Positions 8,610 to 57,137 of a stretch of 64,000 nt of DNA are shown in pieces. The notes under the pieces are model-generated. The model was not told the origin of the DNA, searched no databases, and was given only the letters and a program-made list of their open reading frames with translations. The stretch is from Deltaproteobacteria bacterium (GTDB taxonomy: Bacteria > Myxococcota_A > UBA9160 > PR03). Made by a program: the position numbers and the translations under genes. The DNA lies in the NCBI GenBank assembly GCA_031396445.1, contig JANNKU010000149.1, positions 30,975 to 94,974 of the forward strand, written 5' to 3'. Each line of letters opens with the position of its first letter. The stretch's first letter is position 1.

Positions 8610-10793
8610 TCAGCTGCCGAGCACTTGCCGGATCGCGCCGACGAGCTCCTCGGGCTCCCATGGCTTGCGGAGGAATGCGTCGAGACCGCGCGCTGCGAAG
8701 CGTTCGGCAACGCGCGCCGCGTCATAGCCAGTGACCAGGATCACCGGCAGATCGCTGCGCGCTTCGCGCAGTCGCAGGAACAATTCTTCGCCGCTCATGT
8801 CGGGCATCGTGAGATCGAGTAGGACGGCATCGACCGCCGCGACGCCGATCTCGCGCACGTGATCGAGCGCTTCGCGACCGCCGCGCGCCGCAAGCACGCG
8901 GAAGCCCGCGCGCGTGAGCACTTCGCTCGCCACTTCGAGAATGCCCTCGTCATCATCGACGATCAGCACCGTGCCACCCACTGCGGGCGACACGTCGGTG
9001 CGCGATGTCGCGCTCGCTTCGGGATGTCGCGCGGCGCTCGGCGGAAACAACGCGCGCACGCGCGTGCCGCGTCCCAACTCGCTCTCGATGCAGATCGCGC
9101 CGCGATGCGCCTGCACGATGCCGAGTACAGCCGCCATGCCGAGACCGCGGCCCGAGAACTTCGTCGTGAAGAACGGCTCGAAGACGCGTGCGGCAGTGGC
9201 AGCGTCCATGCCGCAACCGTCATCGCTGACGCTGAGTTCGACGACGGCGCCCGGCGCGATCTCGTCGCTGCCGAACGCGTCGCGCACTTCCGCGTGCGAG
9301 ATTTCCACCATCGCGACGCGCACGACGATGCGCATGGCCTCCTCGCGCTGCGCCTCCGATGCGTTCAGCACGAGATTCATCAGCACCTGCCGCATGCCGC
9401 CCGCGTCGGCCTCGATGGTGGGCAGCGCGCCGCTCGGCTCGAACACGAGTTCGCAGCGCTCCGGCACCGACGCGCGCAGCAGCTCCGCCATCGACGCGAC
9501 CAGCGCGCCGAGATCGAGCGGAGTGCGCTTGGGCGACGACTTCCCTGCGTAGGCGAGCATCTGATCGGTGAGCGATGCGGCGTGTTGCGCGGCCTCGGCG
9601 ATACGCGCGACACGCGGCCGTGCCGGCGCATCGTCGCTCAGTTCGTCGAGCGCGAGCCGCGCGCTGCCGCGAATCACCGTCAGCAGATTGTTGAAATCGT
9701 GCGCGATGCCGCCCGCGAGGATGCCCAGGCTCTCGAGACGCTGCACCTGCTCGACGTGGCGACGCAGGCGCTCGCTCTCCTGCTCGGCGCGCTTCAGCTC
9801 GGTGACATCGCGCGCAGATCCCAGCACCTCGATGCTGCCCGTGACACCAAACAAGACACGCGCGAGCCGCAGCTGAATCCAGCGCGGTTCGCCATCGCGA
9901 CCGACCAGCTGGCGCTCGAGAGCAATCGGTTGGCCAGCCTGGATCTGCCGATACTCCCGATCCATCTGCTCGCGCGCGCCGGGCTCGAGCAGTCGCAACC
10001 AGCCGTGGCCATCGATGTCTTCGGCGCGCCAGCCGAGCGTGGCCTCGAAGGCGCCCGCCGTCCATACACGCGTGAGCCGCGCATCGCGATCGATGCGGAG
10101 CTTGAATGCAAAGTCGGACGCGAGTTCGGAAATGGTTCGGTAGCGCTCTTCGCTCGCCGCCAGTTCGAGCGTGCGCGCGGCGACGCGCTCCTCGAGCACG
10201 CGTCGCACCGCGCGGCGCAGTTGATCGCCCGCGGCCTGAATCTGGATGCAGAGCACGAGCGGTGCGACGGCGAGCCACAGCGGCACGAGTCGCAAAATCT
10301 GTCTTCCCGATGCGAGCGACAGCAGATGGATGGCGCCCGCCACCGCGAGCAACGCCATCGCCGGCGCGAGTAGCCGCCCCGAGATCGTGGCTTCCTGCTC
10401 TTGCGCGAGGCGCCACGCGACGAACGCCGCAGCGAACACCGCGAGCGGTTCGCACAGAAGTCCCAGCGCGTAGCCCGCTTGCGAGCCGAAGAGAGACGCG
10501 ACCGCCGCCCGCAGCAAACCGAAGGCCACTGTTGCCGGCCACCACCAACGGGGCACTGGGCGACCCGCGAGCCCGAGCGTGCCCGCGAGAAACAACGCGG
10601 CGCTGATCGTGCCGAGCGGCTGCGCGATCAGTTGCAGCTTCGCAAAAGTCGGAAGCGCTGCGGGAATCGCACCGGCGATGGCAGCCGCGCACCAACCAGC
10701 CATCCAATACCCGACCGGCCCCATCCGTTGCAGCAGTCGCGCTGCCAGCACGGTGAAGAGCGCGAGAATCAGGAGCAGTGCGATTTCGAGCAC
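8610..10793 (-). CDS. Hybrid sensor histidine kinase/response regulator (multi-TM sensor, PAS, HisKA, HATPase_c, REC)
   Basis: The N-terminal roughly 190 aa are hydrophobic. A PAS-like region follows. The H-box is GGIAHDFNNLLTVI, the G-boxes are DDGCGMD and GRGLGMA, and the receiver region is VLIVDDDEGILE...LLDLTMPDMSG...PVILVTGY. Confidence 0.93.
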   Translation of the reverse strand: MLEIALLLILALFTVLAARLLQRMGPVGYWMAGWCAAAIAGAIPAALPTFAKLQLIAQPLGTISAALFLAGTLGLAGRPVPRWWWPATVAFGLLRAAVASLFGSQAGYALGLLCEPLAVFAAAFVAWRLAQEQEATISGRLLAPAMALLAVAGAIHLLSLASGRQILRLVPLWLAVAPLVLCIQIQAAGDQLRRAVRRVLEERVAARTLELAASEERYRTISELASDFAFKLRIDRDARLTRVWTAGAFEATLGWRAEDIDGHGWLRLLEPGAREQMDREYRQIQAGQPIALERQLVGRDGEPRWIQLRLARVLFGVTGSIEVLGSARDVTELKRAEQESERLRRHVEQVQRLESLGILAGGIAHDFNNLLTVIRGSARLALDELSDDAPARPRVARIAEAAQHAASLTDQMLAYAGKSSPKRTPLDLGALVASMAELLRASVPERCELVFEPSGALPTIEADAGGMRQVLMNLVLNASEAQREEAMRIVVRVAMVEISHAEVRDAFGSDEIAPGAVVELSVSDDGCGMDAATAARVFEPFFTTKFSGRGLGMAAVLGIVQAHRGAICIESELGRGTRVRALFPPSAARHPEASATSRTDVSPAVGGTVLIVDDDEGILEVASEVLTRAGFRVLAARGGREALDHVREIGVAAVDAVLLDLTMPDMSGEELFLRLREARSDLPVILVTGYDAARVAERFAARGLDAFLRKPWEPEELVGAIRQVLGS

Positions 10794-10811
10794 GGCGCGG
10801 CCAGCATACCG

Positions 10812-12693: not shown

Positions 12694-14043
12694 CTAGCCG
12701 ACTCGAATCTCCACCTGCTGAAGGTCGCCCGCTTTCGCTCGCTTGCTGCGCACCGCCGGATTGAAGTACGCGAAGCCGAGTTGCGGGAAGCGCTGCGCCA
12801 ACGCGTCGCGCAGCCAGCGCATGCCGTGGCCCGGCCGGATCGTGCCGCGCGGCAGCGCCTTCCGGTACAGCTCGGGATCGAGGTTCAGATTGCGCAGCTG
12901 GATGCGATGCAGGCCGGTGCGCTCGATGAGGCCACAGAGCGCGTCGAGTTCCGCGTCGGTGTCGGTCACGCCCGGGAAGCAGAGCAGATTGATCGAAGCG
13001 TGGCCGCCCGCCTGCACGACGATCGAGATGCTCTCCTCGACCTCGGCGAAGGAGTAGCCGCGCGGGTTGTAGTACGACGCGTAGACCTTCGGGCGCGGCG
13101 AGTTCATGCTGGCGCGCATCGCGTCGAGGCCCGCGTCGCAGAGCGCGCGCACCACGTCGGGGCGACTCGCGTTGCTGTTCAGGTTGATCGTGCCGCGCGC
13201 GCCGGCCGCGCGAATCCGGCGCGTCGCCTCGACGAGGATCGGGCCAAACAAGGTCGGCTCGCCCTCGCAGCCTTGACCGAAGCTCACCACGCCCCGCGGC
13301 ACGCGCGCGAAATGCGCGAGCGCGGCGTCGGCGACCTCTCGCGGTGTCGGCGCGATGTTCAGGCGATCGTGGCTCGCGCGGAACGCGCCGTCCGGCTGCA
13401 GCGAGATGCAACCCACGCACTGCGCGTTGCACGCGATCGACACCGGAAGCGGTCCCTCGTGGCGGCCGATGAAGAAATTCTGCGCGGCGCGGCAGCCATA
13501 TTCGAGCGCGCAGCGCTCGAGCTGTCGCGCCACCCGATTGCGCGGCAGCAAGCGCTTCATCTCCGCCACGCCTTCCTCGATTCGCGGCAGCGAAAAACGC
13601 CAAGGGTCCTGGCGGCGATCTTCGTCGGAGCGAAACGCGCTCGTCCAGTACTGATCGTCGGCCCAACCGACCGCGGTGTAGGCGTAGAGCGGCAGCGTCG
13701 GCGCGTTGCGTCGCGTGCGCCACGCCGCGTGATGACCCGCCGTGTGCGCCGGCGCCACGAACGCCGCCACGGCGCGCGCCTCACCGCCCTCCCAGCGCGA
13801 AACAGAGAGCGGAGCACCCGTCGCGGGATCGAGACCCACCGGCGCGCGACCGGGCAGCGTGAAGAGATCCGAGCCGCGCGGCAGCGGGATCAATTCGCTC
13901 GCGGCGATCGCCTCGGCTCCCGCACCGCGCACACCGGCGAGCAGCAACTCCGGGTGATCGAAGATGCGTCCCTCGAGATCGCTGACGAGCAAGCGCACGG
14001 GCTCGATCGGAACGCGAGGCTGCGGGTGGGCCGTGTTGCGCAT
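12694..14043 (-). CDS. Radical SAM domain protein with long N-terminal extension
   Basis: Starts at MRNTAHPQ (CAT at 14041-14043). The CxxxCxxC cluster CNAQCVGC follows an N-terminal domain of about 190 aa. The C-terminal region contains SINLLCFPGVTD. Confidence 0.85.
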   Translation of the reverse strand: MRNTAHPQPRVPIEPVRLLVSDLEGRIFDHPELLLAGVRGAGAEAIAASELIPLPRGSDLFTLPGRAPVGLDPATGAPLSVSRWEGGEARAVAAFVAPAHTAGHHAAWRTRRNAPTLPLYAYTAVGWADDQYWTSAFRSDEDRRQDPWRFSLPRIEEGVAEMKRLLPRNRVARQLERCALEYGCRAAQNFFIGRHEGPLPVSIACNAQCVGCISLQPDGAFRASHDRLNIAPTPREVADAALAHFARVPRGVVSFGQGCEGEPTLFGPILVEATRRIRAAGARGTINLNSNASRPDVVRALCDAGLDAMRASMNSPRPKVYASYYNPRGYSFAEVEESISIVVQAGGHASINLLCFPGVTDTDAELDALCGLIERTGLHRIQLRNLNLDPELYRKALPRGTIRPGHGMRWLRDALAQRFPQLGFAYFNPAVRSKRAKAGDLQQVEIRVG

Positions 14044-14162
14044 ATGGAATTGGCGAGCATGACCGACGGTCGCGCCGCAGCGCAACCAAGTCGCGGCTGG
14101 GGCTGCCGCTCGCGCTCGATTCGGGGCATGCTGTACGCGCTCGAAATCTTGGGAGGTGCTTC

Positions 14163-17787: not shown

Positions 17788-18720
17788 CTAGCCGAGGGCT
17801 GCTTGATGGGCCCAGGCCGCCAGGTCGGGAGCCGCGAGCTCGCGAACGCGTGCTTCGTAGCGCTGCTGGTCCCCTTCCTCGAAGAGGGCCTGCCACTGGC
17901 CGCTGGTGCCGCGATGGAAGAATCGCTGGTTGTCGTGCCAGATCGACTCGGTGACAGCGGGCGCCAGCCGGTCGGCGTTGCGGCGCATCTCCTCGAAGCT
18001 GGCAGCCCGGACGAGCTCGGGCCAGCGCGCTTCGGGCACCGAGATCGAGAGGCGCGCGGCCAGCGCACGCATCTGCCCTTCCAGGTCGGCCTTGAGATTC
18101 GCGTAGTGCAGCATCGCGATGTTCGGCCGGTCGCGGACGGCCCAGAAACTCGCGAGGTGATGCAGCACCGCGAGCACCGAGTTCGGCGTCTCGGTCGCCG
18201 GTGCCGGGTTCATCACGAAGGCCCAGAAGCGCTCGCGTTCGCTTTCGGGTTGCGGCGGCGGTCCGTTCGCGAGCATCTCGGCGATGTCGTCGTTGCCGAC
18301 GCTGGCAGCACGGGCGCTGAAGAGCGCAGCCGCGTCGGTGTTCGCCATGTGGTTGTCCCACGACAGCGCCACGTCGCGCGGGTCGCGTCCGACGCAGAGG
18401 TAGGTCACCCGCTCGTCGAAGGGAAGTCCGTCGAACGGCGTGTGAGTCTTGATGAAGCGCCGATGCGGCTGCGCCTCGAGCTCGGCGAGAATGTCCGCGT
18501 GCGGGCGTGTAAGCATGTCGATCCAGGGCGACACGCTCGTGAGTGGCTTGTCGAGGTCCGCACTCTGGAACACGAGCAGCGCGCAAATCCGCTGCATCCA
18601 CGTGGTGCCGCACTTGGGTGGCGTGCTGATCACGATGTCGCCGGGACGGAACTCGAAGCCTTCCCAACGCGAGCTGTCGTAGACGAAGGTCTTGTAGTGG
18701 ACCCGAGCAGTCTGCTTCAT
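17788..18720 (-). CDS. Sulfotransferase domain protein (PAPS-dependent)
   Basis: Starts at MKQTARVHYK (CAT at 18718-18720). The 5'-PSB loop is ISTPPKCGTTWMQ, and the 3'-PB region is FIKTHTP...YLCVGRDPRDVALS. Confidence 0.88.
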   Translation of the reverse strand: MKQTARVHYKTFVYDSSRWEGFEFRPGDIVISTPPKCGTTWMQRICALLVFQSADLDKPLTSVSPWIDMLTRPHADILAELEAQPHRRFIKTHTPFDGLPFDERVTYLCVGRDPRDVALSWDNHMANTDAAALFSARAASVGNDDIAEMLANGPPPQPESERERFWAFVMNPAPATETPNSVLAVLHHLASFWAVRDRPNIAMLHYANLKADLEGQMRALAARLSISVPEARWPELVRAASFEEMRRNADRLAPAVTESIWHDNQRFFHRGTSGQWQALFEEGDQQRYEARVRELAAPDLAAWAHQAALG

Positions 18721-18758: not shown

Positions 18759-19340
18759 TCACGCACTCTTGCGGTGGCGGCGAAGACGCAGAGCGTGGAG
18801 GACCGACGGCACGTCGTGCCGACACTCCGCGGAGAGCACCGTGATGCCCAGCTCGTCGATCGCGCACACCACCTGGAAGAGCGCCGCGATGCGGAACGGC
18901 CACGCGATGTCGAAGAGCAGCAACAGCGGCGCGCTGATCCCCATCAACACCGAGCCCAACTTCACAGACCAGGTGTGGTAACCCGGCACCGCTCGATACT
19001 TGAGGTAGGCGATCGTCGTCGGCAGCAGCATGCAGGCGAGCGCGAGGATCACGTAGCGTGACTCGCGGCCGATGACCGCCGGCCACAGCCACCAGGCGGC
19101 GAGCGGCAGCGAAGTCCACAGCGCGAAGTCGCCCCACTGGTCGAGCCGCGCGCCAAATGCGGTCTCTCGACCGAGGCGCCGCGCGAGCACGCCGTCGAGG
19201 ACGTCGGACACGAGCCCGAGCGCGAACAGGATCAAGAACGGGGTCACGGCGCCGCGCCACGCGAACGCAAGCAGCACCGGCACACACACGATTCGGAACG
19301 CGCTGAGCAGGTTCGGAGCGCTGATGCGCGCTTCACCCAA
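18759..19340 (-). CDS. CDP-alcohol phosphatidyltransferase family protein
   Basis: The motif DVLDGVLARRLGRETAFGARLDQWGD fits D(x)2DG(x)2AR(x)8G(x)3D(x)3D. The protein is a polytopic membrane protein. Confidence 0.85.
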   Translation of the reverse strand: MGEARISAPNLLSAFRIVCVPVLLAFAWRGAVTPFLILFALGLVSDVLDGVLARRLGRETAFGARLDQWGDFALWTSLPLAAWWLWPAVIGRESRYVILALACMLLPTTIAYLKYRAVPGYHTWSVKLGSVLMGISAPLLLLFDIAWPFRIAALFQVVCAIDELGITVLSAECRHDVPSVLHALRLRRHRKSA

Positions 19341-19761
19341 CGGTGTCGCTCGGCGCGACGCGCTCGGTCCGGCGCCGCGCGCGCATCAGCAGCACGCCGG
19401 GGATCGACAACGCCGCAGCCTGCAGCAGACCGATGGCCCAGCCGTGCCCATTGGGACTGGCCTCACTCCAAACGAGATGAGAGAGCGCGATGTAGAACGA
19501 GTACGCGGCCGCTGCCGGAAGAATCCAGGAGCGTTGAAACCAGAAACCCCACGCGCCGACGAGGAACACAGCCCAGTGGAGCGGAGCCGTCACCAACGCG
19601 GCTGTGCCGCGCAACTCGAAGCCGAACCACACCTCGACGTCGCGCGTCTTGGCGACGAAGAGATCGCGCGGAACGAGAACGACCACGGTGACAAGACAGA
19701 AGATGGCGAGCGCCGTCATCCACCAGGGGCGTGCGTCGGACGGCGAAGCTGTGTCACGCAT
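19333..19761 (-). CDS. Membrane protein, function unknown
   Basis: Starts at MRDTASPSDARPWWMTALAIFCLV (CAT at 19759-19761). It has 4 TM segments, and its 3' end overlaps the phosphatidyltransferase start by 8 nt. Confidence 0.6.
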   Translation of the reverse strand: MRDTASPSDARPWWMTALAIFCLVTVVVLVPRDLFVAKTRDVEVWFGFELRGTAALVTAPLHWAVFLVGAWGFWFQRSWILPAAAAYSFYIALSHLVWSEASPNGHGWAIGLLQAAALSIPGVLLMRARRRTERVAPSDTVG

Positions 19762-19897
19762 GAATCTCGCTCCGCCTGACGACGCGGCGATCCGTTGCCG
19801 GCCGCCCTGGGTGTCAGCCCAGTCTCGTTTGCCAGTCGCAGCCGTGTCAACTCGCTCCGGAGGATCAGATCTTCGCCGGCGTACGAACTCCGAGCCT

Positions 19898-21685
19898 CTA
19901 TGCCTGGTAGCGGCGCGCCACTTCTTTGCGCATCCGCTCGGCGAGTTCGGGATTGCGGCGGACGACGCCAAGGAAGCGCTCGCGTGAAATCGCCCAGGTG
20001 AGCATGTGTGTGAGGGCGATCACGGTGGCGCTGCGCGGGCGATCTTCGAGCGGCCCGCGCTCGCCGATGACGTCGCCTTCGCCGACGTCGCGCACGGCGC
20101 CGCCGTCGATCGTGACGAGCGCTTCGCCCTCGGCGATCGCGTAACACTCGTTCGATTCGGCGCCTTCGAGACAGAGCGCATCGCCGGGCTCGAAGCTGAG
20201 CGGGTACGCGGTGGCCGCGAGTTCGTCGAGCTCGGCGGCGTCGCAGAGGCGCAGCACGGCAGTGCGCGCGAGCAGCGCCGCGGTTGCCACGCGATCGCCG
20301 CGCACCGCTTCGCCGCGTTCGGCGCGCGCGCGCAGCGCCTCGCGCCAGCTTCCGTCGTCGGCGGGGCGCAGACCGAGCACCACCGCGTCGAGATCGAGCG
20401 GCGTCGGTGACGCAGCCTTCGTTGCGGCAGCCGCGGGCCGCGCGACGTGCGTTCGTGTCGCGGGTGACGGCTGGGCGTGACACACGAGATCGAGCGACTC
20501 GAGGCCGCGCAACGTCAGCCGGTCCATGAAGCGCGGTTCGGCTGCGAGTTCGATCGTGCCGAAGCGCGCGAGCAGTGCGCGGAACACGACGTCCACCTCG
20601 AGGCGCGCGAGCGACGCGCCGAGGCAGAAGTGCACGCCGCCGCCGAGGCTCAACGGATCGACGTTCGCGCGCGCGAGGTCGAAGCGGTCGGGATCCGGGT
20701 TGCGCGCGGGGTCGTGATTGCCGGCGCCGAGCAGCACCAGCACCGGCTCGCCGGCGGGGATCGCAACGCCACACACTTCCACGGGCGCAGTCGTGACGCG
20801 CGCGGCCATCTGCACGGTGCCGTCGTAGCGGAGCAGCTCGTCAGGGAGATTCTCGAATAGCGCGGGATCCGCGCGCAGCGCCGCGAGTTGATCGGGATGG
20901 CGCAGCAGCGCCAGCACGCCATTGCCGATCAAGTTCGTCGTCGTCTCGAAGCCGGCGGCGAAGAGCAGCGTCGCGAGCGTCACGAGTTCGTCGTCATCGA
21001 GGCGATCGCCGGCTTCGGGCCGCGCGAGCAGCGAGATCAGATCGTCGGCGGGATTGCGCCGCTTGGCGGCGATCAGTTCGAGGAAGTAGGCGCGAATCTC
21101 GAGCTGCGCTGCGTCGGCGGCCGCGATCATCGCGGCGCTCGGCTGCTGCTCGAGCGTGCCGACGAGATCGCGCACCAGCTTGCGGAACGGGGGCCGGTCC
21201 GCGACGGGAATGCCGAGCATCTCGCCGATCACCGTGACCGGAAGCGGGAACGCGACGGCGTCGAGCAGATCACCGCCGCCCTGTTTCTCGTAGTCGTCGA
21301 TCAGCGACGAGACGCTGCGCTCCATCGTCTCGCGCAGCGCATCGACACGGCGACGTGTGAAGCCCTTAACCACGAGTTTGCGCAAACGCGTGTGCTCCGG
21401 GCCATCGACGTTCAGCATCGAGTGCTCGCCGCGCGTGAGCGACGGGTGCTCGCGCCACTTCGGCCCGAAGCGCGCCTCGGTCTGGCGCGCGTAGTCCTTG
21501 CCGAAGCGCGGATCGCGCAGCGCGGCGCGGACGTCGTCAAAGCGCGAGAGCATCCACGACCCAAACGCGCTTCGGTGTACCGGCGCCGCGGCGCGCAACT
21601 CGTGATAGAGCGGATACGGATTGCGGCGACCTTCCGGCGTCGCGAAGAGCTCGAAGGCGATCTCGGTGGCCGGGCGCATCGTCAT
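19898..21685 (-). CDS. Cytochrome P450 fused to a C-terminal cyclic-nucleotide-binding (CAP_ED) domain
   Basis: P450 hallmarks are the I-helix AAGFETTTN, ExxR (DELLRYD) and the heme loop GGGVHFCLGASLA. After an Ala/Pro linker of about 60 aa comes a cNMP-binding fold (FEPGDALCLEGAESNECYAIAEGEA...GERGPLEDRPRSATVIALTHMLTWAI), at about 19901-20280. Confidence 0.9.
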   Translation of the reverse strand: MTMRPATEIAFELFATPEGRRNPYPLYHELRAAAPVHRSAFGSWMLSRFDDVRAALRDPRFGKDYARQTEARFGPKWREHPSLTRGEHSMLNVDGPEHTRLRKLVVKGFTRRRVDALRETMERSVSSLIDDYEKQGGGDLLDAVAFPLPVTVIGEMLGIPVADRPPFRKLVRDLVGTLEQQPSAAMIAAADAAQLEIRAYFLELIAAKRRNPADDLISLLARPEAGDRLDDDELVTLATLLFAAGFETTTNLIGNGVLALLRHPDQLAALRADPALFENLPDELLRYDGTVQMAARVTTAPVEVCGVAIPAGEPVLVLLGAGNHDPARNPDPDRFDLARANVDPLSLGGGVHFCLGASLARLEVDVVFRALLARFGTIELAAEPRFMDRLTLRGLESLDLVCHAQPSPATRTHVARPAAAATKAASPTPLDLDAVVLGLRPADDGSWREALRARAERGEAVRGDRVATAALLARTAVLRLCDAAELDELAATAYPLSFEPGDALCLEGAESNECYAIAEGEALVTIDGGAVRDVGEGDVIGERGPLEDRPRSATVIALTHMLTWAISRERFLGVVRRNPELAERMRKEVARRYQA

Positions 21686-21837: not shown

Positions 21838-22662
21838 ATGGCTCAGACCGAGATCGCGATCGTCCTGATGCGCCAGCTCGCGAGCACCCTCGCGGTGCCG
21901 ATCCTGATCGTCGATCGCGCGCGCGATCTGCTTTTCTTCAACGAATCCGCCGAGCCGATCCTCGGGCGCCGCTTCGAGGAAACCGGGCAGATCCAGCGCG
22001 GCGAGTGGACCGGCCTGTTTCGGCCGGCCGACCTCGATGGCGTCGCGATTCCGCCCGAGGAGCAGCCGCTCACGCGCGCCACCGATCGCGCCGAGCCGTC
22101 GCATCGCCGGTTTCTGTTGACGGGGCTCGATGGCGTGGCGCGCGTCATCGAGGGCGTCGCCTTTCCGCTCGCGACGCGGGAGTCGGGCATGATGGGCGCC
22201 GCCGGCATTTTCTGGGACGTGCACGAACAGGATGCGGCTCCGCCGGCGCCGGAGGCGAATCCGCCTTCGCGCACCCGACACGCCGTCGAGGTGATCCTGC
22301 TCCGAAGGCTCGCGGACCGACTGCTGATGCCGATCTTCGTCACGGATTCCGACGGCCACCTGCTCTTCTACAACCCCGCAGCGGAACCCCTGCTCGGGCG
22401 ACCCTTCTCTGCGTTGGGTCCCGTGCCGCTGCGCGAGTGGTATGGCGCATTCCAGCCGACCGACGACGAAGGCTCGCCGATCCAGATCGAAGACCATCCA
22501 CTGAGTGTCGCGCGCCTCCAGCAGCGGCCGAGCTACCGGCGCCTCTCGTACCAGGGCCTCGACGGCGTGAAGCGTCGTGTCGAAGCCACCGCATTCCCGC
22601 TGCTGGGTCACAGCAACCGGCACCTCGGCGCCGTCGGGATCTTCTGGGAGAGCGCGCGATGA
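21838..22662 (+). CDS. Tandem PAS-domain protein (no output domain)
   Basis: Starts at MAQTEIAIVL. Two internally repeated halves of about 120 aa are visible: ...PILIVDRARDLLFFNESAEPILGRRF...GAAGIFWD and ...PIFVTDSDGHLLFYNPAAEPLLGRPF...GAVGIFWE. Confidence 0.75.
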   Translation: MAQTEIAIVLMRQLASTLAVPILIVDRARDLLFFNESAEPILGRRFEETGQIQRGEWTGLFRPADLDGVAIPPEEQPLTRATDRAEPSHRRFLLTGLDGVARVIEGVAFPLATRESGMMGAAGIFWDVHEQDAAPPAPEANPPSRTRHAVEVILLRRLADRLLMPIFVTDSDGHLLFYNPAAEPLLGRPFSALGPVPLREWYGAFQPTDDEGSPIQIEDHPLSVARLQQRPSYRRLSYQGLDGVKRRVEATAFPLLGHSNRHLGAVGIFWESAR

Positions 22663-23534
22663 AGGTCACGCTCTGGGGCACGCGCGGGTCGCTGCCGTCG
22701 CCGGGACCGGAGACGACGCAATACGGTGGCAACACGTCGTGCGTCGAAGTGCGCGCGGCGAACGGCAGCCTGCTCGTGCTCGATGCCGGAACGGGAATCC
22801 GCCGATTGGGCGACAGCATCGCCGACGAAGTCCAGCGCGTGGATCTGCTGCTGACGCACCTCCACATGGATCACATCCAGGGCTTGGGATTCTTCGAGCC
22901 GCTCTTTCGTCCCGAGACGGAGGTGCACATCTGGGGGCCGTCCTCGACCACGCTCGATCTGCGCACGCGCCTGTCGCGCTATCTGTCGCCGCCGCTCTTC
23001 CCGGTGCGCCTGCGCGATCTCCCGCGTCAGCCGACCTTTCACGATGTGGTGTCACTCGGCGCATTCCGCATCGGTCCCTTCGAGATCCATGCCGAGCTGG
23101 TCTGCCATCCAGGGCCGACGGTGGGCTATCGCATCGACGCCGATGGTGTGTCGATCGCCTACATCCCCGATCATGAACCGGCGCTGGGACTCGATGTATT
23201 CCCGGGCGACCTCGACTACGTGCCCGGCCTCGGGCTCGCGCAGGGCGTGGACCTGCTGATCCACGACGCGATGTACTCGGCAGCCGAGTACCCGCAGCAC
23301 GTCGGCTGGGGACATTCTTCGCTCGGTCAGGCGCTCGCCTTTGCTGGCGCTGCGGGCGCGAAGCGACTCGTGACCTTCCACCATGATCCGAGCCACGGCG
23401 ATGAAGAGTTGGAGCGACTCTTTGCCGAGGTGACCGCGTCACCGCTTCCCTGCGAGCTGGTGCGCGGGTGCGAAGGCGCCGTCTTCGAAGTGTCGGCCAT
23501 GCGGCGCGCCGCGGCGGATGGAGTGCGCGCGTGA
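22659..23534 (+). CDS. MBL-fold metallo-hydrolase
   Basis: The ATG overlaps the PAS gene stop (ATGA). The sequence begins MKVTLWGTRGS...NTSC and carries the HxHxDH motif LLLTHLHMDHIQG, followed by later His/Asp ligands (IHDAMY, FHHDP). Confidence 0.88.
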   Translation: MKVTLWGTRGSLPSPGPETTQYGGNTSCVEVRAANGSLLVLDAGTGIRRLGDSIADEVQRVDLLLTHLHMDHIQGLGFFEPLFRPETEVHIWGPSSTTLDLRTRLSRYLSPPLFPVRLRDLPRQPTFHDVVSLGAFRIGPFEIHAELVCHPGPTVGYRIDADGVSIAYIPDHEPALGLDVFPGDLDYVPGLGLAQGVDLLIHDAMYSAAEYPQHVGWGHSSLGQALAFAGAAGAKRLVTFHHDPSHGDEELERLFAEVTASPLPCELVRGCEGAVFEVSAMRRAAADGVRA

Positions 23535-24402: not shown

Positions 24403-27400
24403 ATGACTTGCACGGCCTGCGGCCACGCCAATCCCGTGCGGACGAAGTTCTGCTCCGCGTGCGGAGCGCCTGCCGCCGCACGTTGTGGGAGCTGCGGCAG
24501 CGAACTTCCGGCTGGCGTGAACTTCTGCGGCGAATGCGGCGCGAAGGTCGCGGGAGCGCCGAGAGCCTCGCCCGACCGCTCGCCGCGCGACTACACGCCG
24601 CGTCACCTCGCCGACAAGATCCTGCAATCGAAGTCGGCGCTCGAAGGCGAGCGCAAGCAGGTCACCGTGCTCTTCGCCGACGTGAAGGGCTCGATGGAAC
24701 TCGCCGAGCACCTCGACCCCGAAGAGTGGCACCGCATCCTCGAGCGCTTCTTCGAGATCCTCACCGAAGGCGTCCACCGCTTCGAAGGCACCGTCAACCA
24801 GTACACCGGCGACGGGATCATGGCGCTCTTCGGCGCGCCGATCGCGCACGAGGATCACGCACAGCGCGCCTGCTACGCGGCGCTGCACCTGCGCGACGCG
24901 TTGCGTGGCTACGCAGACGAGCTGCGACGCACGGCGGGGCTCAGCTTGTCGACGCGCATCGGCATCAACTCCGGCGAGGTGGTCGTCGGCAAGATCGGCG
25001 ACGACCTGCGCATGGACTACACCGCGCAAGGACAGACGGTCGGCCTCGCGCAGCGCATGGAGCAGTGCGCCGCTGCCGACAGCAGCTACTTGACGGCGCA
25101 CACCGCTCGACTCGTCGAAGGCTACTTCCAGGTTCGCGATCTCGGTGACTTCGAGCTGAAGGGAGTTTCCGCACCGCTGCGCGTCTACGAGCTGCAAGGC
25201 GTCGGCGCGCTGCGCACGCGGCTCGACTCCTCGCGTTCGCGCGGTTTCTCGAAGTTCGTCGGCCGCGATCGCGAGATGGCGAGTCTTGAGAGCGCGCTCG
25301 ACGCGGCGATCGCGGGACACGGGCAGGTGGTGGGCGTCGTGGCCGATGCGGGCACCGGCAAGAGCCGCCTCTGCCTCGAGTTCGTCGAGCGCTGCCGCGC
25401 GCGCGGCATCCGCGTGAACGAGGCCCACTGCCCGGCGCACGGCAAGACGGTTCCGTATCTGCCGCTGCTCGAGATGCTGCGCGACATCTTCGGTATCGAA
25501 GCACGCGACAGCGATCACGAGGCGCGCCGCAAGATCGCCGGCGAACTGATGCTGCTCGACGAGAGCTTCCAGACGCTGCTGCCGATCTTGTTCGAGTTCA
25601 TGGGCGTCGCAGACCCGGCGAAGCCCGCGCCGCCGATGAGCCCGGAAGGTCGCCAGCAAAAGCTCTTCGCATTTGTGCGTCACCTGGTGCAGGCGCGCAG
25701 CGAACGCGAGCCGGCGGTGCTGCTGCTCGACGACCTGCACTGGATCGACCCGGGCAGCGACGCGTTCCTCGCGCACTCGGTCGAAGCCGCGGCGCAGACG
25801 CGCACACTGTGGCTGGTGAACTTCCGGCCGGAGTATCACGCCGATTGGATGAGCAAGTCATTCTACCAGCAGCTTCCGCTGCGACCGCTCGGCGCCGAAG
25901 CGATCGCCGCGCTGCTCGCGGATCTGCTCGGCAACGATGTGTCGGTCGCGGCGCTACCCGCGCGGATCCACGAGCGCACCGGCGGCAATCCGTTCTTCAT
26001 CGAGGAGATCGTGCAGTCGCTGGTCGAGAACGGGAGTCTCGTCGGAACAAAGGGTGCCTACCGACTGGCGACCGCCGCCGACGCGCTCGAACTGCCGAGC
26101 ACCGTGCAGAGCGTGCTCGCCGCGCGCCTCGATCGACTGCCCGAGCGCGAGAAGCGACTGCTGCAAACGGCGTCGGTACTCGGCAAGGAGTTCTCCGGCG
26201 CGCTGCTCGAAAGTGTCGTCGCGACGTCCGGACGCCATGGGATCGGCGACGCCGAACTCGCCGATTCCCTCGCTGCGCTCGCGCGCGCCGAGTTCATTTT
26301 CGAGGCATCGCTCTATCCCGAGGTCGAGTACGCGTTCAAGCATCCGCTGACGCAGGAGGTCGCGTACAAGTCGCAGCTCGGGGCGCGACGCGCCGAGCTA
26401 CACGCAGCCGTCGCGCGCGCGATCGAGCAACTACACGCCGACAAACTCGACGAGCGCGCCGCGCTACTCGCGTATCACTGGGAGCAGGCGGGCGAGGCGC
26501 TGACGGCGGCGCAGTGGCACGCGCGCGCGGCCGGCGTCGCCGGCTTCGATTCTCCGGTGGAAGCCGTGCGACACTGGGAAAGCGTCTGGGAGATCCTTCA
26601 GGCCGCGCCAGCCTCGGACGAGGGCGTGGCGCTGCGACTGCGCGCGGCGGGCGAGCTGCTGAACTTCGGCTGGCGCGTGGGCATGACGCACGAGCGCGCC
26701 GCCCAGATCTTCGGCGAGGGAAAGGCGCTCGCCATCGAACGCGGCGACGTCCGCGAGCAGGTGCGCCTCCACAACGCACTCGCGTTGATCCATGCCTCGC
26801 GTGGGGATCCGCGGCGAGCCATCGCGCTCTTCGAAGAGTCCGTCGTGCTGGCGGATGCGACCGGCGATCCCGAGCTGCGGTGGTCGGCGCGAACCGCCTT
26901 CGACTTCACGCTCTGGCTGGTCGGGGATCTCGACCGCGCACAGCGGATGAACGACGAGCAGATCGCGCTCGGCGAAGTCGATCCCGCGCTCGGGATCGCG
27001 ACGGTCGGACTCAGCACCGCCGACTCCCTCTGGCACCGAGGGGTGATCCTGAGGGATCTCGGCCGCTTTCAAGAAGCGGCCGCAGCGTTCCAGCGTGCCG
27101 ACGAGCGAGCGCTGCGCTTCGGCGAGAACGAGATGGCGAGCTGGATCGAATTCATGCGGGCGGACACTCTCGAGCGTGCCGGCGACACATCGGGAGCGCT
27201 GTCGATCGCCCGGCGCGCGATCGAGTCCGCCGAGAAGATCGGCAGCGTGCTCGGCCGCGTTGGGGCCCACGCCAGCTACGGGATGGCTTGCGTCTTGGCC
27301 GAGCAGTGGCAGAGCGCCCGAGAGAGCCTCGACTTCGCGCTGGAACTGGGTCGCGCCAAGCACGTAGGCCTCTTTTTCGAGCCCTACTTCGTGGCAGCGC

Positions 27401-27786
27401 TCGCCGAGGCGCATCTCGGCCTCGGCGACGAGCCGCGCGCGCGACAGGTCGCCGAGGAAGCGCACGAGATCGCGTTGCGCGCGCAGATGCTGGTTGCCGA
27501 CGTGCGCGCGCTGCTCGCCGGCGTCCGCGTGCGGCTGACGCTCGATGGCGTAGATGCGCGCGAGCAGATCGAGTCCACGCTCGATCGCGCGCTCGCGCTC
27601 GTGCGCTCGACCGGCGCGCGTTCGTTCGAGCCGCAGATCCACGTCGAGCGCGCGCGACTCGCGGGCCTGCTCTCCGACGCGGTCGGCCGCGAGCAGTGGT
27701 TGCGCGAGGCGCATCGCCTCTTCACCGAGATGGGCGCGACGGGGCACGCCGAGCGCGTGGCTCTGCTGTTGGCGTCGCCGCGATGA
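24403..27786 (+). CDS. Double zinc-ribbon / class III adenylate-guanylate cyclase / STAND P-loop NTPase / TPR protein (paralog 1)
   Basis: Begins MTCTACGHANPVRTKFCSACG...CGSCGSELPAGVNFCGECGA. The cyclase core is ERKQVTVLFADVKGS...YTGDGIMALFGAP...GINSGEVVVGKIG. Walker A is ADAGTGKSRL, and LLLDDLHWID is also present. The C-terminal roughly 450 aa are helical repeats. Confidence 0.93.
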   Translation: MTCTACGHANPVRTKFCSACGAPAAARCGSCGSELPAGVNFCGECGAKVAGAPRASPDRSPRDYTPRHLADKILQSKSALEGERKQVTVLFADVKGSMELAEHLDPEEWHRILERFFEILTEGVHRFEGTVNQYTGDGIMALFGAPIAHEDHAQRACYAALHLRDALRGYADELRRTAGLSLSTRIGINSGEVVVGKIGDDLRMDYTAQGQTVGLAQRMEQCAAADSSYLTAHTARLVEGYFQVRDLGDFELKGVSAPLRVYELQGVGALRTRLDSSRSRGFSKFVGRDREMASLESALDAAIAGHGQVVGVVADAGTGKSRLCLEFVERCRARGIRVNEAHCPAHGKTVPYLPLLEMLRDIFGIEARDSDHEARRKIAGELMLLDESFQTLLPILFEFMGVADPAKPAPPMSPEGRQQKLFAFVRHLVQARSEREPAVLLLDDLHWIDPGSDAFLAHSVEAAAQTRTLWLVNFRPEYHADWMSKSFYQQLPLRPLGAEAIAALLADLLGNDVSVAALPARIHERTGGNPFFIEEIVQSLVENGSLVGTKGAYRLATAADALELPSTVQSVLAARLDRLPEREKRLLQTASVLGKEFSGALLESVVATSGRHGIGDAELADSLAALARAEFIFEASLYPEVEYAFKHPLTQEVAYKSQLGARRAELHAAVARAIEQLHADKLDERAALLAYHWEQAGEALTAAQWHARAAGVAGFDSPVEAVRHWESVWEILQAAPASDEGVALRLRAAGELLNFGWRVGMTHERAAQIFGEGKALAIERGDVREQVRLHNALALIHASRGDPRRAIALFEESVVLADATGDPELRWSARTAFDFTLWLVGDLDRAQRMNDEQIALGEVDPALGIATVGLSTADSLWHRGVILRDLGRFQEAAAAFQRADERALRFGENEMASWIEFMRADTLERAGDTSGALSIARRAIESAEKIGSVLGRVGAHASYGMACVLAEQWQSARESLDFALELGRAKHVGLFFEPYFVAALAEAHLGLGDEPRARQVAEEAHEIALRAQMLVADVRALLAGVRVRLTLDGVDAREQIESTLDRALALVRSTGARSFEPQIHVERARLAGLLSDAVGREQWLREAHRLFTEMGATGHAERVALLLASPR

Positions 27787-28112: not shown

Positions 28113-28121
28113 GAGCCTGCA

Positions 28122-28541
28122 ATGCGATCCCTCGATGAATCGATCGAGCGCGCGGTGGCGATTCTCTCCGGAGAGCCGCGCGTGCGAGTCGTGTACCTCT
28201 TCGGCTCCGCAGCGCGCCCCGGCTCCATCCCGCCGCGCGACCTCGATCTCGCCGTCTGCGCCCGCCCGCCGCTATCGCTTCCCGAGCTGCTCCAGCTCCA
28301 GGGCCGCGCGCAAGAGGCGATCCACTTGCCGCTGGACCTGGTGAGCCTCGACGACGCTCCGATCGTCCTCGCACACGAGATCATCGAGGGTGGGCGCTGC
28401 CTCTACACCCGATCGCCCGACGACGAAACGGAGTTGGTGACGCGCACGCGGATGCGCTGGTGGGACTGGCTGCCCGTGCGCGAGCGCCAGTGGCAGGCGA
28501 GCGGCGAGCGTCTGGAGGATCGCGTTGGTTCTTCGGCCTGA
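28122..28541 (+). CDS. MNT-type nucleotidyltransferase (type VII TA antitoxin-like)
   Basis: The sequence YLFGSAARPGSIPPRDLDLAV carries the GSxxR...DxD NTase signature. The gene overlaps the downstream HEPN-like ORF. Confidence 0.85.
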   Translation: MRSLDESIERAVAILSGEPRVRVVYLFGSAARPGSIPPRDLDLAVCARPPLSLPELLQLQGRAQEAIHLPLDLVSLDDAPIVLAHEIIEGGRCLYTRSPDDETELVTRTRMRWWDWLPVRERQWQASGERLEDRVGSSA

Positions 28542-29931: not shown

Positions 29932-32900
29932 TTGAGCTTCGTCGCCAAACTCCAACGCGCCCGGGACGTCCTCGAACAACAGGGGCGTCTCTCCGTCCGC
30001 GCGCTGGCCCGCGAACTCGACCTCGCCGGCGACGAGCTCGAGGAGCTGATCAGCGAGCTGGTCGACGTGCAACGCGTGGCACTCCGCGAGGACGCCGTCC
30101 TCGTCTGGGCGAACCCTCGGGCCGCCGCAGATCCCGCGCCTCGGCGCCCGGCACCCGATCCGCGCTCGTACACCCCGAAGCACCTCGCCGAGAAGATCCT
30201 GCAATCGAAGTCCGCGCTCGAAGGAGAGCGCAAGCAGGTGACCGTCTTGTTCGCGGACGTGAAGGGTTCGCTGGAACTCGCCGAGCAACTCGACGCCGAA
30301 GTGTGGCACCGCATTCTCGAGCGCTTCTTCGAGATCCTCGCCGAAGGCGTCCACCGCTTCGAAGGCACCGTCAACCAATACACCGGCGACGGCATCATGG
30401 CGCTCTTCGGCGCACCCATATCTCATGAGGATCACGCGCAGCGCGCTTGCTACGCGGCGCTGCACCTGCGCGACACGCTGAAGACCTACGCCGATGCGCT
30501 GCGCATCGAGCATGGGCTCAACTTCTCGGTGCGCATGGGCATCAACTCGGGGGAGGTCGTGGTCGGCAAGATCGGCGACGACTTGCGCATGGACTACACC
30601 GCACAGGGCCACACGGTCGGGCTCGCGCAACGCATGGAGACGCTCGCCGAGTCGGGCAAAGCGCTGCTCGCGGCCAGCACGATCGACATCGTCCATGGCT
30701 ATTTTGCGCTGCGCGATCTCGGCGCGATGAATGTGAAAGGCCTCGATGCGCCCGTGCGAGTCGCCGAGCTCGAAGGCGTCGGGCGGATGCGCACGCGCCT
30801 CGATCGATCGCGGGCGCGTGGGCTCTCGAAGTTCGTCGGCCGTGACGAAGAGATGGGACGCCTCGAGACGGCGCTGCGCCGTGCACTCGACGGCGACGGG
30901 CAGGTGATCGGCGTGATGGCCGAAGCCGGCTCCGGGAAATCGCGGCTCTGCTTCGAGTTTCTCGAGCGCTGTCGATCGCAGGGCATCACCGTGCGCACCA
31001 CGACTGGTGTGCCTCACGGCCGCGCGGTGCCGCTGCAGCCGATCCTCGAGTTCTACCGCGAGATCTTCGGGATCGAGCAAAGCGACAGCGACGTGCAAGC
31101 GCGCCAGAAGATTGCCGGCAGCATCGCGCAGGCGGCGCCCGAAGAACTCGGCTGGCTCCCGCTGCTCTTCGACTTCATGCGCGTGCCCGACCCCGCGCAG
31201 CCGGCCCCCGATCTTTCGCCCGACGAGCGGATGCGCGCATTGATCGCGCTGCTGCGCCGCATCACCGCGGCGCGCAGTCGGCGCGAGCCCGCGGTGCTGG
31301 TCTTCGAAGATCTGCATTGGATCGACGCCGACACCGAAGTGATCATCGAAGGCTTCGTCGATGTCGCGGCGGGCACCCGCACGCTGATCCTGCTCAACTT
31401 CCGTCCCGAGTACCGCGCGAGCTGGGTCGGGCGCACGCACTACCAGCAGATCGCGCTGCGCCCGCTCGATGCCGCCGCCGCGGGCGAACTGCTCGGCGAT
31501 TGGCTCGGCGCGCACGCTTCCCTCGCCGGCTTCGTCGAACTCGTCTGCAAGCGCACCGGCGGAAATCCCTTCTTCATGGAGGAAGTGGTGCAAGCGCAGA
31601 TCGAGTCGGGCGCGCTCGTCGGCGCGCGCGGGCATTTCGAGCTGGCGCACCCGATCGACAGCATCGAGGTGCCGGCGAGTGTGCAGAGCCTGCTCGCGGC
31701 GCGCATCGATCGCCTCGACGAGGCGAGCAAGCGCCTGTTGCAGACCGTGGCGGTAGTCGGTGATGAGGTGGCCGAGACGCTGCTCGAACGCGTGGCCGAA
31801 CTCGATCGCGATGCGCTGCGCAGCACCGTACGCTCTTTGGTGCAGAGCGAGTTTCTCTACGAGGCGTCGCTCTACCCGGAGAGCGAGTACGCGTTCAAGC
31901 ATCCGCTCACGCGCGAGGTGGCGTATGCATCGCTGCTGCGCGAGCGGCGGCACGCGCTGCACGCAGCGGTGGCAACGACGCTCGAAGCGCTCGCCGGCGA
32001 TGCGGCCGATCAACGCGCGCCGCTGCTCGCGCACCACTGGGAACAGGCGGGGCGCCCGCTCGAATCCGCGCGCTGGCAAGCGCGCACCGCGGCGCGGCTC
32101 GGCCTGAACGCGGGGGAGTCGATCTTCCACTGGCGCAAGGTGACGGAGCTGCTCGCTGCGGAGAGCGGCACACCGGAGGCGCGCGCGCTGCTCGGTCAGG
32201 CGCGTTCCCGATTGGTGTACGCCGCGGGGCGCAGCGCGGCACCGGAGGCCGAGGTGGCGACACTTTTCGCGGAAGCGCGTCGCGAGCTCGGCGAAGCGGA
32301 CTCGCGCGAACTAGCCTGGACGCTCGCCACCTACGGCATCGTGCGCAACGCGGCTGGCAACGTCGAAGAGGCGCGGCGTCTGAATGCCGAGGCCCTGGCG
32401 ATGGCACGGCGCCTAGAGGATCTCCCTCTGCTCGCAGCGACGCTGGCAGCCGGCATCGCGATCACGCCCGCGTCCGAGTTTCCGGAGCAATGCGCGCAGC
32501 TGATCACCGAGGTCGGGAGCCTGAGCGCCAAAGATCCGTCGCTCGGCGAGGAACTGCTCGGGTTTCGTCCCTCGGCCGCAGCCAACACGGCTTCCCTCTT
32601 TGCGCACTTCCGCTTCGGCCGCGGTGGCGAGATGGAGCCGCTGCTGGCCGCATGGCGGAGCAGCGTCGGCGATAGCCGCAACGCGATTGATCAGGTCTGG
32701 CTTCACAACGGCTTCACCTCGGTGCGCGCGGCGCGGGGCGACGTGAACGGCGCACTCGAACACGGTCGCCAGACCCTCGAGTGGGCGATGCAGTCGCAGA
32801 ACCTCTTCATTCGGGTGGTTGGACATTCCGCGCGGGGCCGAGGGCTACTCGCTGCGGGTCGGTTCGACGAGGCGCTCGAGTACCTCGAACCGGCGTTGAT

Positions 32901-38057: not shown

Positions 38058-38179
38058 GCCCGCCCCTCCCTTTGGCGAAGGGCCAAGCTACCCCATCCGC
38101 ATCGCGCACAGATCGCTCGTGAAGATCAACCGGCTCGCCGATGATGAGCGTTCGAACCCCAGCCAGGGATGGACACACG

Positions 38180-44190: not shown

Positions 44191-44279
44191 CGGTCGCCTC
44201 GGCCCGACGCGTGCGAGAGTCACGTCGGATGAACATTGTTCGATCGCCTGCCACGCCTATAGGGTTGGAGGACTCCATC

Positions 44280-56975: not shown

Positions 56976-57137
56976 ATCGCGCCACGTTTCGACGCTTGCC
57001 GCCGTACGCTCGATGGCGTAGCGGACGACTGCCCTGTTTCGGGGCAGCGCGTGCCTCGCTCCGCGTCACTCGTCGAGCGGCCGATGCGCGCCGAGCTCCG
57101 CGCGGTGGCACTGCTCTTGCGTATGGGCCCACTCGGA

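Follow-up and report, generated by a model that had tools for sequence, protein, structure and literature searches.

Here, we report a cytochrome P450 fused to a cyclic-nucleotide-binding (CNB) domain, encoded by a single gene on the minus strand at positions 19898-21685 of a 64,000-nucleotide stretch of contig JANNKU010000149.1 from a Deltaproteobacteria bacterium. This whole stretch is called the window; coordinates are positions in it, L numbers stand for homologous loci and P numbers for database proteins. We consider it somewhat probable, judging from the sequence, that the product is a soluble CYP107-like P450 whose activity is controlled by a cyclic nucleoside monophosphate (cNMP) through a C-terminal cassette made of a conserved amphipathic helix plus the CNB domain, with a neighbouring cyclase as the source of the nucleotide. 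The fusion itself is far beyond chance. Such a P450-CNB protein would surprise P450 enzymologists, and it belongs to a family widespread in uncultured soil bacteria and often encoded beside cyclases. The gene and the parts of its product, all on the minus strand, are as follows.

19898-21685, minus strand: coding sequence of the P450-CNB fusion, 595 amino acids (aa), with the ATG at 21683-21685 and the stop codon at 19898-19900 (translation checked)
20477-21670, minus strand: P450 catalytic domain, CYP107-like class I, aa 6-403 (best PDB match 8yhn; Foldseek)
20933-20959, minus strand: I-helix oxygen-activation motif AAGFETTTN with the acid-alcohol pair E247/T248 (translation)
20828-20839, minus strand: K-helix ExxR motif, E283-L-L-R286 (translation)
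20606-20644, minus strand: heme-binding loop GGGVHFCLGASLA with the thiolate ligand Cys354 (translation)
20369-20476, minus strand: variable Ala/Pro-rich inter-domain linker, aa 404-439 (low model confidence, poor conservation)
20318-20368, minus strand: pre-CNB helix motif RPADDGSWREALRARAE, aa 440-456 (conservation and model)
19910-20293, minus strand: CNB domain with N-terminal helices, beta-barrel and B/C helices, aa ~465-592 (Pfam, PDB, PADLOC and model)
20021-20065, minus strand: phosphate-binding cassette GERGPLEDRPRSATV with G541, E542, R551, S552 and A553 (translation)

The open reading frame (ORF) starts with ATG, contains zero internal stops and is preceded by a Shine-Dalgarno-like GAGGGGA placed 6-7 nt 5' of the start codon. 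The GC content at third codon positions (GC3) is 0.73-1.00 throughout the gene in a single frame, linker included, and a database protein (P0001) is 100% identical to the translation. The original prediction, made from the letters alone, had described one gene that runs from a P450 through an Ala/Pro-rich linker into a cNMP-binding domain, and this description holds: frame and GC3 are continuous, and both Pfam domains are found on the translation above their gathering cutoffs, i.e., p450 (PF00067) with E 5.8e-24 and 85.1 bits (cutoff 22.8) and cNMP_binding (PF00027) with E 3.3e-15 and 56.3 bits (cutoff 27.5) at aa 496-578, covering profile positions 2-89 of 89. The region near 20300-20450, where a frameshift or an assembly join might have been suspected, shows no sign of either; GC3 runs through it and the homologues share the architecture.

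The P450 part is complete, as had been proposed, and translation placed AAGFETTTN, ExxR and the heme loop exactly where they had been quoted. Its best sequence match in the PDB is 8yhn (CYP107P2; E 2.5e-87, aa 6-403). Foldseek returned CYP107P2 at 41% identity with a target-normalised template modelling (TM) score of 0.88, DmlH at 45% and PikC (CYP107L1) at 41%; identity to CYP107X1 is 42%, and EryF and P450 BioI are further solved relatives. With CYP107-type identities of 41-45% over ~400 aligned columns, CYP107 membership appears borderline under the >40% identity rule, and the assignment is a matter for the P450 nomenclature committee. In a conservation alignment of 34 fusions (58-83% identity), on which the statements on invariance here and below are based, A244-N251 of the I-helix are invariant or near-invariant, and E283 and R286 of the K-helix as well as G348-G350, H352, C354, L355 and G356 of the heme loop are invariant. 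Compared with the FxxGxxxCxG pattern, the window protein reads LGGGVHFCLG, the first position being Leu here and Phe in most homologues. By these residues the P450 domain looks catalytically competent. The Pfam search with E up to 0.1 returned only p450 and cNMP_binding, and Pfam and NCBIfam found no flavin, Fe-S or reductase domain in the protein; the fusion partner is thus, as the original prediction had emphasised, neither a reductase nor a ferredoxin, unlike in the common P450 fusions.

Fused and stand-alone P450 domains were also compared position by position. Only ~22 positions of the P450 domain are enriched in the fusions, they form no clear cluster on the surface, and the candidate fusion-specific surface patch was set aside as weak, with only G289/T290 being sharply diagnostic. 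These two residues (aa 289-290; 20816-20821) lie just past ExxR, where fused P450s read RYDGT and stand-alone relatives RYDSP: Gly289 is found in 100% of the fused versus 7% of the stand-alone sequences and Thr290 in 97% versus 5%. In the sequences compared, this pair is the sharpest fusion-specific signature of the catalytic domain.

The linker of ~36 residues has a predicted local distance difference test (pLDDT) score of ~30 in the AlphaFold2 model, and both its length and its sequence vary across the fusion alignment; Foldseek against the PDB found no chain that spans both the P450 and the CNB domains. Right after the linker comes a helix (444-456 in the model) with the consensus RPxxDDxWRxxLRxRxE, in which R440, P441, R448, L451, R452 and E456 are invariant and W447 is kept in >=90% of the fusions. 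The motif (RPxGDDxxWRxxYR) is also present in four of the five actinobacterial fusions examined, L027 being the one without it.

The CNB domain has its best PDB matches in protein kinase G (PKG) and the regulatory subunit of protein kinase A (PKA-R), followed by PycTIR, mycobacterial Pat and MloK1. The PADLOC profile for the PycTIR CNB domain matches aa 456-593, and NCBIfam reports the CNB parts of Pat and of a family 2B encapsulin. The phosphate-binding cassette GERGPLEDRPRSATV aligns with that of PKG, FGERALLYDEPRSATIIA, and with PKA cassettes, and it is kept in the Actinomycetota fusions; G541, E542, R543, R551, A553, T554 and V555 are invariant and position 552 is S, A or T, so by alignment the Gly-Glu / Arg-[S/T/A]-Ala signature is intact. 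Ser or Thr at position 552 is a PKG-type feature linked to cGMP, and Ala is the PKA type. Three residues ahead of the stop codon, the C-terminus has a conserved RRY that may act as a lid or cap. There is no HTH_Crp (helix-turn-helix) match after the CNB domain, the protein ending 3 residues past the C-helix at aa 595, and the CRP and FnrL models match the CNB part only, at 17-19 bits against cutoffs of 266-300. The absence of a helix-turn-helix (HTH) domain and the best matches to PKG/PKA-R, Pat and PycTIR together identify a PKA/PKG-like domain rather than a CAP/CRP regulator. The earlier label of a CAP-type cNMP-binding domain is therefore kept in its second half and corrected in its first: the C-terminal region matches the cNMP-domain hidden Markov model and has the phosphate-binding cassette, and it is PKA/PKG-like without an HTH.

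The homologue search covered 5.8 billion proteins, and the best 120 homologues listed are 57-84% identical to the window protein and almost all full length (~593-685 aa). The original prediction had asked how common the architecture is; PF00067 and PF00027 are both present in 120/120 of these homologues. They come from NCBI, ENA, JGI and Logan under source names such as 'Deltaproteobacteria bacterium', 'Candidatus Binatia bacterium' and 'Candidatus Acidoferrales bacterium', and public databases annotate the fusion proteins as 'cytochrome P450' only. A scan of one genome per species found full-length fusions in Binatia-type metagenome-assembled genomes (MAGs; L005-L017 and L023, 57-86% identity) and in Actinomycetota MAGs (L020-L022, L024, L025 and L027, 41-51% identity); all fusions listed are from MAGs or metagenomes, and zero are from cultured isolates. 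Please note that the taxon labels of the MAGs with close homologues disagree, L005, L006, L015 and L017 being labelled 'Spirochaetales', 'Margulisiibacteriota', 'Gemmatimonadaceae' and 'Polyangiaceae' versus mostly 'Candidatus Binatia'.

The nearest stand-alone P450s, which align to aa 1-400 only at 45-52% identity, belong to Acidimicrobiia, Actinoplanes, Streptomyces and Micromonospora. In a neighbour-joining (NJ) tree of the P450 domain, 39/39 fused sequences fall into one clade, joined only by L019 (on a truncated contig of 1.5 kb), L028 (whose 2.4-kb contig ends at the P450) and L025 (a frameshifted fusion). Given this single clade, one origin of the fusion, which two phyla now share, is the most likely. 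Because the catalytic P450 residues and those of the phosphate-binding cassette are invariant in the 34 fusions and kept in the actinobacterial ones, both halves appear to have been selected as functional domains.

The helix and the CNB domain also travel together. Searching 1.84 billion cluster representatives with aa 435-595 brought up the complete fusions, numerous pieces of them that lack the N-terminus, and two further architectures that are 47-48% identical across helix plus CNB. One of them (P0139) is a short-chain dehydrogenase (SDR) followed by the cassette, encoded on two JGI contigs (L089, 342-1709, plus strand; L090, 1378-2745, plus strand), and it shares the D-x-D-W-R-x-x-F-R-R-R-L-E helix, the LAATAYP motif, the phosphate-binding cassette VGERGPIEERPRSATV and the C-terminal RY. 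The other (P0156; L091, 486-1706, plus strand) has a cupredoxin-like domain and a transmembrane helix before the cassette; both architectures are known from short contigs alone. Since the helix recurs on the SDR and cupredoxin proteins, it belongs to the CNB cassette and not to the P450, and helix plus CNB looks like a portable regulatory module carried by at least three unrelated redox proteins. Two apparent stand-alone cassette proteins (P0287 and P0138) were rejected after tblastn traced them to frameshift-fragmented P450-CNB genes on error-prone long-read contigs.

The candidate source of the CNB ligand is encoded on the opposite strand:

24478-27786, plus strand: gene for a zinc ribbon, class III cyclase (Guanylate_cyc), AAA_16 (STAND) and TPR protein, catalytic domain at 24643-25197 (Pfam)

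Exactly three catalytic domains of class III cyclases are encoded in the window (24643-25197, 30220-30774 and 41080-41631, plus strand), and the first cyclase gene starts ~2.8 kb from the P450-CNB start codon, in agreement with the distance of about 3 kb to the first of three cyclase genes given before. The linkage extends to the homologues. All plausible ORFs of 84 loci were clustered in a search for redox partners and substrate-pathway genes; no conserved neighbour of either kind was found beside the fusions in these loci, and a single family, that of the zinc-ribbon/cyclase/AAA_16/TPR proteins, was repeatedly associated with fusions while being absent beside the stand-alone relatives. Among distinct fusion loci with >=5 kb of flank on one side (n=25), 13 have a cyclase catalytic domain within 5 kb (window, L001, L002/8, L003/4, L006, L009, L011, L015, L017, L027, L085, L086 and L088), and the short contig L010 adds one more besides these. 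The cyclase is the adjacent gene in 10-12 fusion loci. In L003, L006, L009, L011, L015, L017 and L027 it immediately follows the fusion gene on the same strand (gaps of ~50-340 bp), in L001, L006 and L086 it immediately precedes it on that strand, and in L009, L010 and L017 the two genes are divergent. The downstream cyclase of L027, an Actinomycetes MAG, is 29% identical to that of the window and is an independent case of the adjacency in another phylum. Beside the stand-alone P450 relatives, a cyclase was found in 0/57 loci. With 50 cyclases per genome, the chance of having one as the immediate neighbour would be ~2%, and it is seen in ~40%, which is not chance, although the fusion loci in this comparison are partly related and not fully independent. 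The stand-alone P450s have as neighbours an MFS transporter, TetR, a thioesterase, an AMP-ligase and a peptide deformylase; we rejected these as clues to a substrate, because they represent ordinary local synteny.

The cyclase active sites, which matter for the nucleotide that the CNB domain would sense, were aligned with CyaB (3R5G), Cya2 (2W01) and CyaC (1WC0). The three window cyclases and most of those adjacent to P450-CNB genes keep both metal-binding Asp residues and the catalytic Arg. These cyclases have Gln (NQYTGDG) at the position of the adenine-specifying Lys, Thr at the second specificity position and Gly where canonical adenylyl cyclases have the transition-state Asn (TVGLAQR versus VNLAxR). 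The same atypical Gln/Thr/Gly centre occurs in the cyclases of L001, L003, L006, L015 and L017, and those of L009 and L002 have Lys instead of Gln.

Combining these data, we propose the following working scheme. The protein would be a heme-thiolate monooxygenase of CYP107-like type, soluble and still dependent on ferredoxin and reductase partners encoded separately. A class III cyclase of the STAND type, encoded nearby, would make a cyclic nucleotide on its own input; the nucleotide would bind at Gly541-Glu542 and Arg551-Ser552-Ala553, upon which the C-terminal lid helix ending in RRY would close and thereby shift the cassette's N-terminal helices, the WRxxLRxRxE helix among them. P450 turnover might then be switched by the release of an autoinhibitory contact or by a changed oligomeric state. 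Binding of cNMP, the identity of the nucleotide, the sign of the regulation and the route of coupling are what we infer here, and the cNMP-gated monooxygenase activity suggested by the original prediction should be taken in the same sense. The resemblance of the CNB domain to proteins proven to be switched by cNMP (PKA-R, PKG, Pat and PycTIR) speaks for the scheme, and the occurrence of the cassette on an SDR and a cupredoxin-like membrane protein as well agrees with a modular regulator.

Several observations weigh against cNMP control of the P450 as proposed above. The cassette sits on three unrelated N-terminal domains, which makes an allosteric surface specific to the P450 unlikely, and there are few fusion-specific conserved P450 residues and no obvious patch. 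A linker with pLDDT ~30 and a predicted TM score (pTM) of 0.61 for the whole model of the window protein give no confident domain packing. No cyclase is found within 5-10 kb in 12/25 loci, including L005, the closest relative on a genome contig (86% identity), and this contradicts a strict operon rule. The atypical cyclase active site makes product and activity uncertain, so the nucleotide is not predictable from sequence; nor can nucleotide specificity be read from the phosphate-binding cassette, as position 552 varies between S, A and T across homologues. The case for regulation is built on sequence, model and gene context. From the flexible linker, the portable cassette and the lack of a clear P450 patch, a generic mode of coupling, in which the ligand either frees the P450 from an autoinhibitory helix or brings about dimerisation or recruitment, is more likely than one through a P450-specific surface.

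The main rival explanation is that the cassette is a cNMP-dependent docking or dimerisation module and that the P450 active site is not directly modulated. Once the ligand is bound, the fused redox protein, be it the P450, the SDR or the cupredoxin, would join an oligomer or dock onto a shared partner, candidates for the latter being the STAND cyclase oligomer and an electron-transfer partner. That three unrelated N-terminal domains share a cassette with 47-48% identity over helix and CNB, that the tether is long, flexible and poorly conserved, that the P450 has no clear fusion-specific surface patch and that the frequent neighbours are oligomerising STAND-type proteins would all be expected under such recruitment. 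However, no partner is kept in all loci and half of them are without a nearby cyclase, only short contigs have yielded the SDR and cupredoxin fusions, and characterised CNB-enzyme fusions such as Pat act intramolecularly. We regard recruitment without direct modulation as unlikely on balance, while giving it serious weight.

A bolder version of cNMP control is that the STAND-type cyclase and the P450-CNB protein make up a dedicated two-gene signalling unit, and that the cassette is a general switch of redox enzymes. In it, the AAA_16-TPR cyclase would sense a pattern or a ligand and, with its atypical Gln/Thr/Gly active site, perhaps make a non-canonical nucleotide that turns on the heme monooxygenase as effector. 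On the sequence and context data we hold this to be rather improbable. If true, it would be an unrecognised bacterial route to second-messenger control of oxidative chemistry, or an oxidative defence effector.

It may also be asked whether the domain binds cNMP at all. CNB-fold domains with other ligands exist (CooA, NtcA and CprK), and the domain in the window could bind a non-cNMP ligand or be structural, the cyclase neighbourhood being a coincidence. Half of the loci have no nearby cyclase, the window cassette has an unusual Gly-Pro after Gly-Glu-Arg and one relative of the cassette has GNE rather than GE, all of which would agree with this. Against it stand the cNMP-contacting Gly-Glu and Arg-[S/T/A]-Ala, which are invariant across two phyla, and best matches that are genuine cNMP binders; moreover, the cyclase is the only recurrent neighbour, and a chance association would need an implausible number of cyclases per genome. 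We give this explanation only a small probability.

A Pycsar-like or STAND-triggered defence or stress module is in our view very unlikely. Here the AAA_16-TPR cyclase would be a pattern-recognition STAND protein whose N-terminal cyclase, when triggered, makes a possibly non-canonical cNMP, and the P450-CNB protein would act as effector, e.g., by uncoupled production of reactive oxygen species or by destroying a metabolite that the cell cannot do without. Pycsar loci do pair a cyclase gene with one for an effector that carries a CNB domain, the cyclases here are tripartite (effector, STAND NTPase and TPR) and lie in paralogous arrays amid toxin-antitoxin-like genes, and their base-specifying residues Gln/Thr are unusual. 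The CNB domain matches PADLOC models of PycTIR (E 6e-17 and 4e-16) and the cyclases match those of PycC (E 3e-22), but PADLOC and Pfam scores are alike (59.5 versus 56.3 bits; 77 versus 80 bits), so that they report superfamily homology only. In addition, a P450 is no known abortive-infection effector, no phage or mobile-element hallmarks adjoin the P450-CNB gene in the window, and the fusion is well conserved (57-86% identity) over many MAGs and often cyclase-less, unlike patchy defence genes.

That the fusion is an artefact of a frameshift, of mis-assembly or of read-through of two neighbouring genes is hardly credible and was rejected on the single frame with its uniform GC3 and on the architecture and conserved junction motif common to the best 120 homologues listed; long-read assemblies do err, but in the opposite direction, by splitting the gene into pieces. 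Such frameshifts break the P450-CNB gene into small called genes in L092 (4898-6618), L093 (5565-6543) and L025 (10001-11724), and in long-read or low-coverage assemblies they give rise to spurious 'stand-alone CNB' database proteins.

The genes on either side of the fusion in the window are as follows.

21847-22662, plus strand: PAS-PAS protein (Pfam PAS_4/PAS), divergent from the P450-CNB gene
22659-23534, plus strand: metallo-beta-lactamase (MBL)-fold phosphodiesterase-like hydrolase (Pfam Lactamase_B_2), overlapping the PAS-PAS gene
19333-19761, minus strand: small membrane-protein ORF (longest form to 19971), no Pfam match, directly downstream of the P450-CNB gene
18759-19340, minus strand: CDP-alcohol phosphatidyltransferase, downstream of the P450-CNB gene
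17788-18700, minus strand: putative sulfotransferase, downstream of the P450-CNB gene

The PAS-PAS and MBL genes share the strand of the first cyclase and are located in the interval that separates it from the P450-CNB gene. The MBL protein matches NF041851 (cyclic nucleotide-degrading phosphodiesterase; 42 bits versus a cutoff of 400) and RNase Z weakly, over its full length; with only the 42 bits to support it, a role as a cNMP phosphodiesterase was not accepted. The two genes may form a local sensor/phosphodiesterase pair, whose membership in the P450-CNB system is uncertain, as it is seen in this window alone. In its longest form (19333-19971) the membrane-protein ORF runs 74 nt into the 3' end of the P450-CNB gene; translation probably begins further inside the ORF, near 19761. 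In the loci compared, no homologue has the PAS, MBL, CDP-alcohol transferase or membrane-protein genes nearby. A copy of the sulfotransferase, 49-65% identical and split in two, is present in L085 (6941-7878, plus strand) directly upstream of an 84%-identical fusion homologue; it was not seen in more distant loci and may therefore be local synteny only.

Toxin-antitoxin-like genes lie among the cyclase arrays or beside the P450-CNB gene in the window (28113-28541, plus strand), in L086 (10218-10812 and 16872-17590) and in L087 (9932-10584). They are of the types Polbeta nucleotidyltransferase, DUF433/DUF5615, PIN with PhdYeFM and FitA-like with PIN, and their interspersion suggests variable genomic regions. 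Further away in the window, at 56976-58991 on the plus strand, a gene encodes a 671-aa protein composed of a glutaminase (PF04960, E 5.7e-125), a STAS domain and a C-terminal cNMP_binding domain (E 1.1e-13), whose phosphate-binding cassette FGEPAIVERATRTAFV also looks intact. Its CNB domain, being only 24% identical to that of the P450, is not a recent paralogue. This second enzyme-CNB fusion in the window shows that CNB domains are joined to metabolic enzymes in this organism. The window also encodes a PQQ-dependent dehydrogenase with a cytochrome c domain, a thermolysin-like M4 peptidase with thrombospondin type 3 repeats, a PAS hybrid histidine kinase-response regulator and a radical SAM protein; the coordinates listed for these four are 35865-38087 (minus strand), 43968-47426 (plus strand), 8610-10811 (minus strand) and 12694-14160 (minus strand).

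The control of bacterial P450s is generally placed at transcription and at the availability of substrate and redox partners, and to our knowledge no P450 is under direct second-messenger control. We found no description of the P450-CNB architecture in the full-text literature, most subscription journals being outside the coverage. If the CNB domain gates activity, P450 chemistry would join the short list of bacterial enzymes switched directly by cAMP or cGMP, of which Pat is the paradigm; the protein would offer biocatalysis and synthetic biology a naturally occurring P450 scaffold that a ligand can switch, and part of the large, unexplained expansion of STAND-type cyclases in Binatia-like and actinobacterial genomes would be given a function. 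The portability of the cassette between P450, SDR and cupredoxin-like proteins suggests a general, reusable design principle.

Several known systems share parts of this design. Fused P450s such as P450 BM3 (CYP102), CYP116B PFOR, the flavodoxin-P450 XplA and CYP51-ferredoxin likewise join a P450 to a second domain, but theirs is an electron-transfer or second catalytic domain, whereas the window P450 carries a ligand-sensing CNB domain only. The neighbouring cyclases have the same order of cyclase, STAND ATPase and helical repeats as Rv0386-type cyclases and TOMM kinase-cyclase fusions (TIGR03903), and they match TIGR03903 with 286 bits, below its cutoff. Gln for Lys at the base-specifying position is likewise a feature of Rv0386. 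They differ from these in their zinc-ribbon N-terminus, their TPR C-terminus, the lack of a LuxR HTH and the Gly that replaces the transition-state Asn.

The CYP107 enzymes (CYP107P2, 8YHN; PikC, CYP107L1; DmlH; EryF; P450 BioI) are 41-45% identical to the P450 domain, with target-normalised TM scores of 0.82-0.91 and the same class I motifs; unlike the window protein, they are stand-alone proteins of ~400 aa without a regulatory domain. Pycsar (PycC plus PycTIR or PycTM; 8JSK) likewise places a class III-type cyclase beside a CNB-effector gene, and the CNB domain matches 8jsk with E 1.9e-8. The cyclases here are, however, ~1100 aa long with zinc ribbon, STAND and TPR parts rather than a compact PycC, the CNB domain is fused to a P450 with no TIR or transmembrane domain found, and the CNB and cyclase scores stay at the superfamily level. 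Pat/KATmt (Rv0998 and MSMEG_5458; 4AVA-C, 4ONU and 4ORF) likewise unites a PKA-type CNB domain and an enzyme in one bacterial polypeptide, its CNB domain controls catalysis directly, and this domain matches that of the window protein (NCBIfam NF058543, E 4e-10; PDB 4onu, E 1.1e-7). In Pat the CNB domain is N-terminal and the output is a GNAT acetyltransferase, whereas the window protein has its CNB domain at the C-terminus, behind a long flexible linker and a helix peculiar to the family, with a heme monooxygenase as output. By function the nearest known system is thus Pat, by layout it is Pycsar and by catalytic domain it is CYP107.

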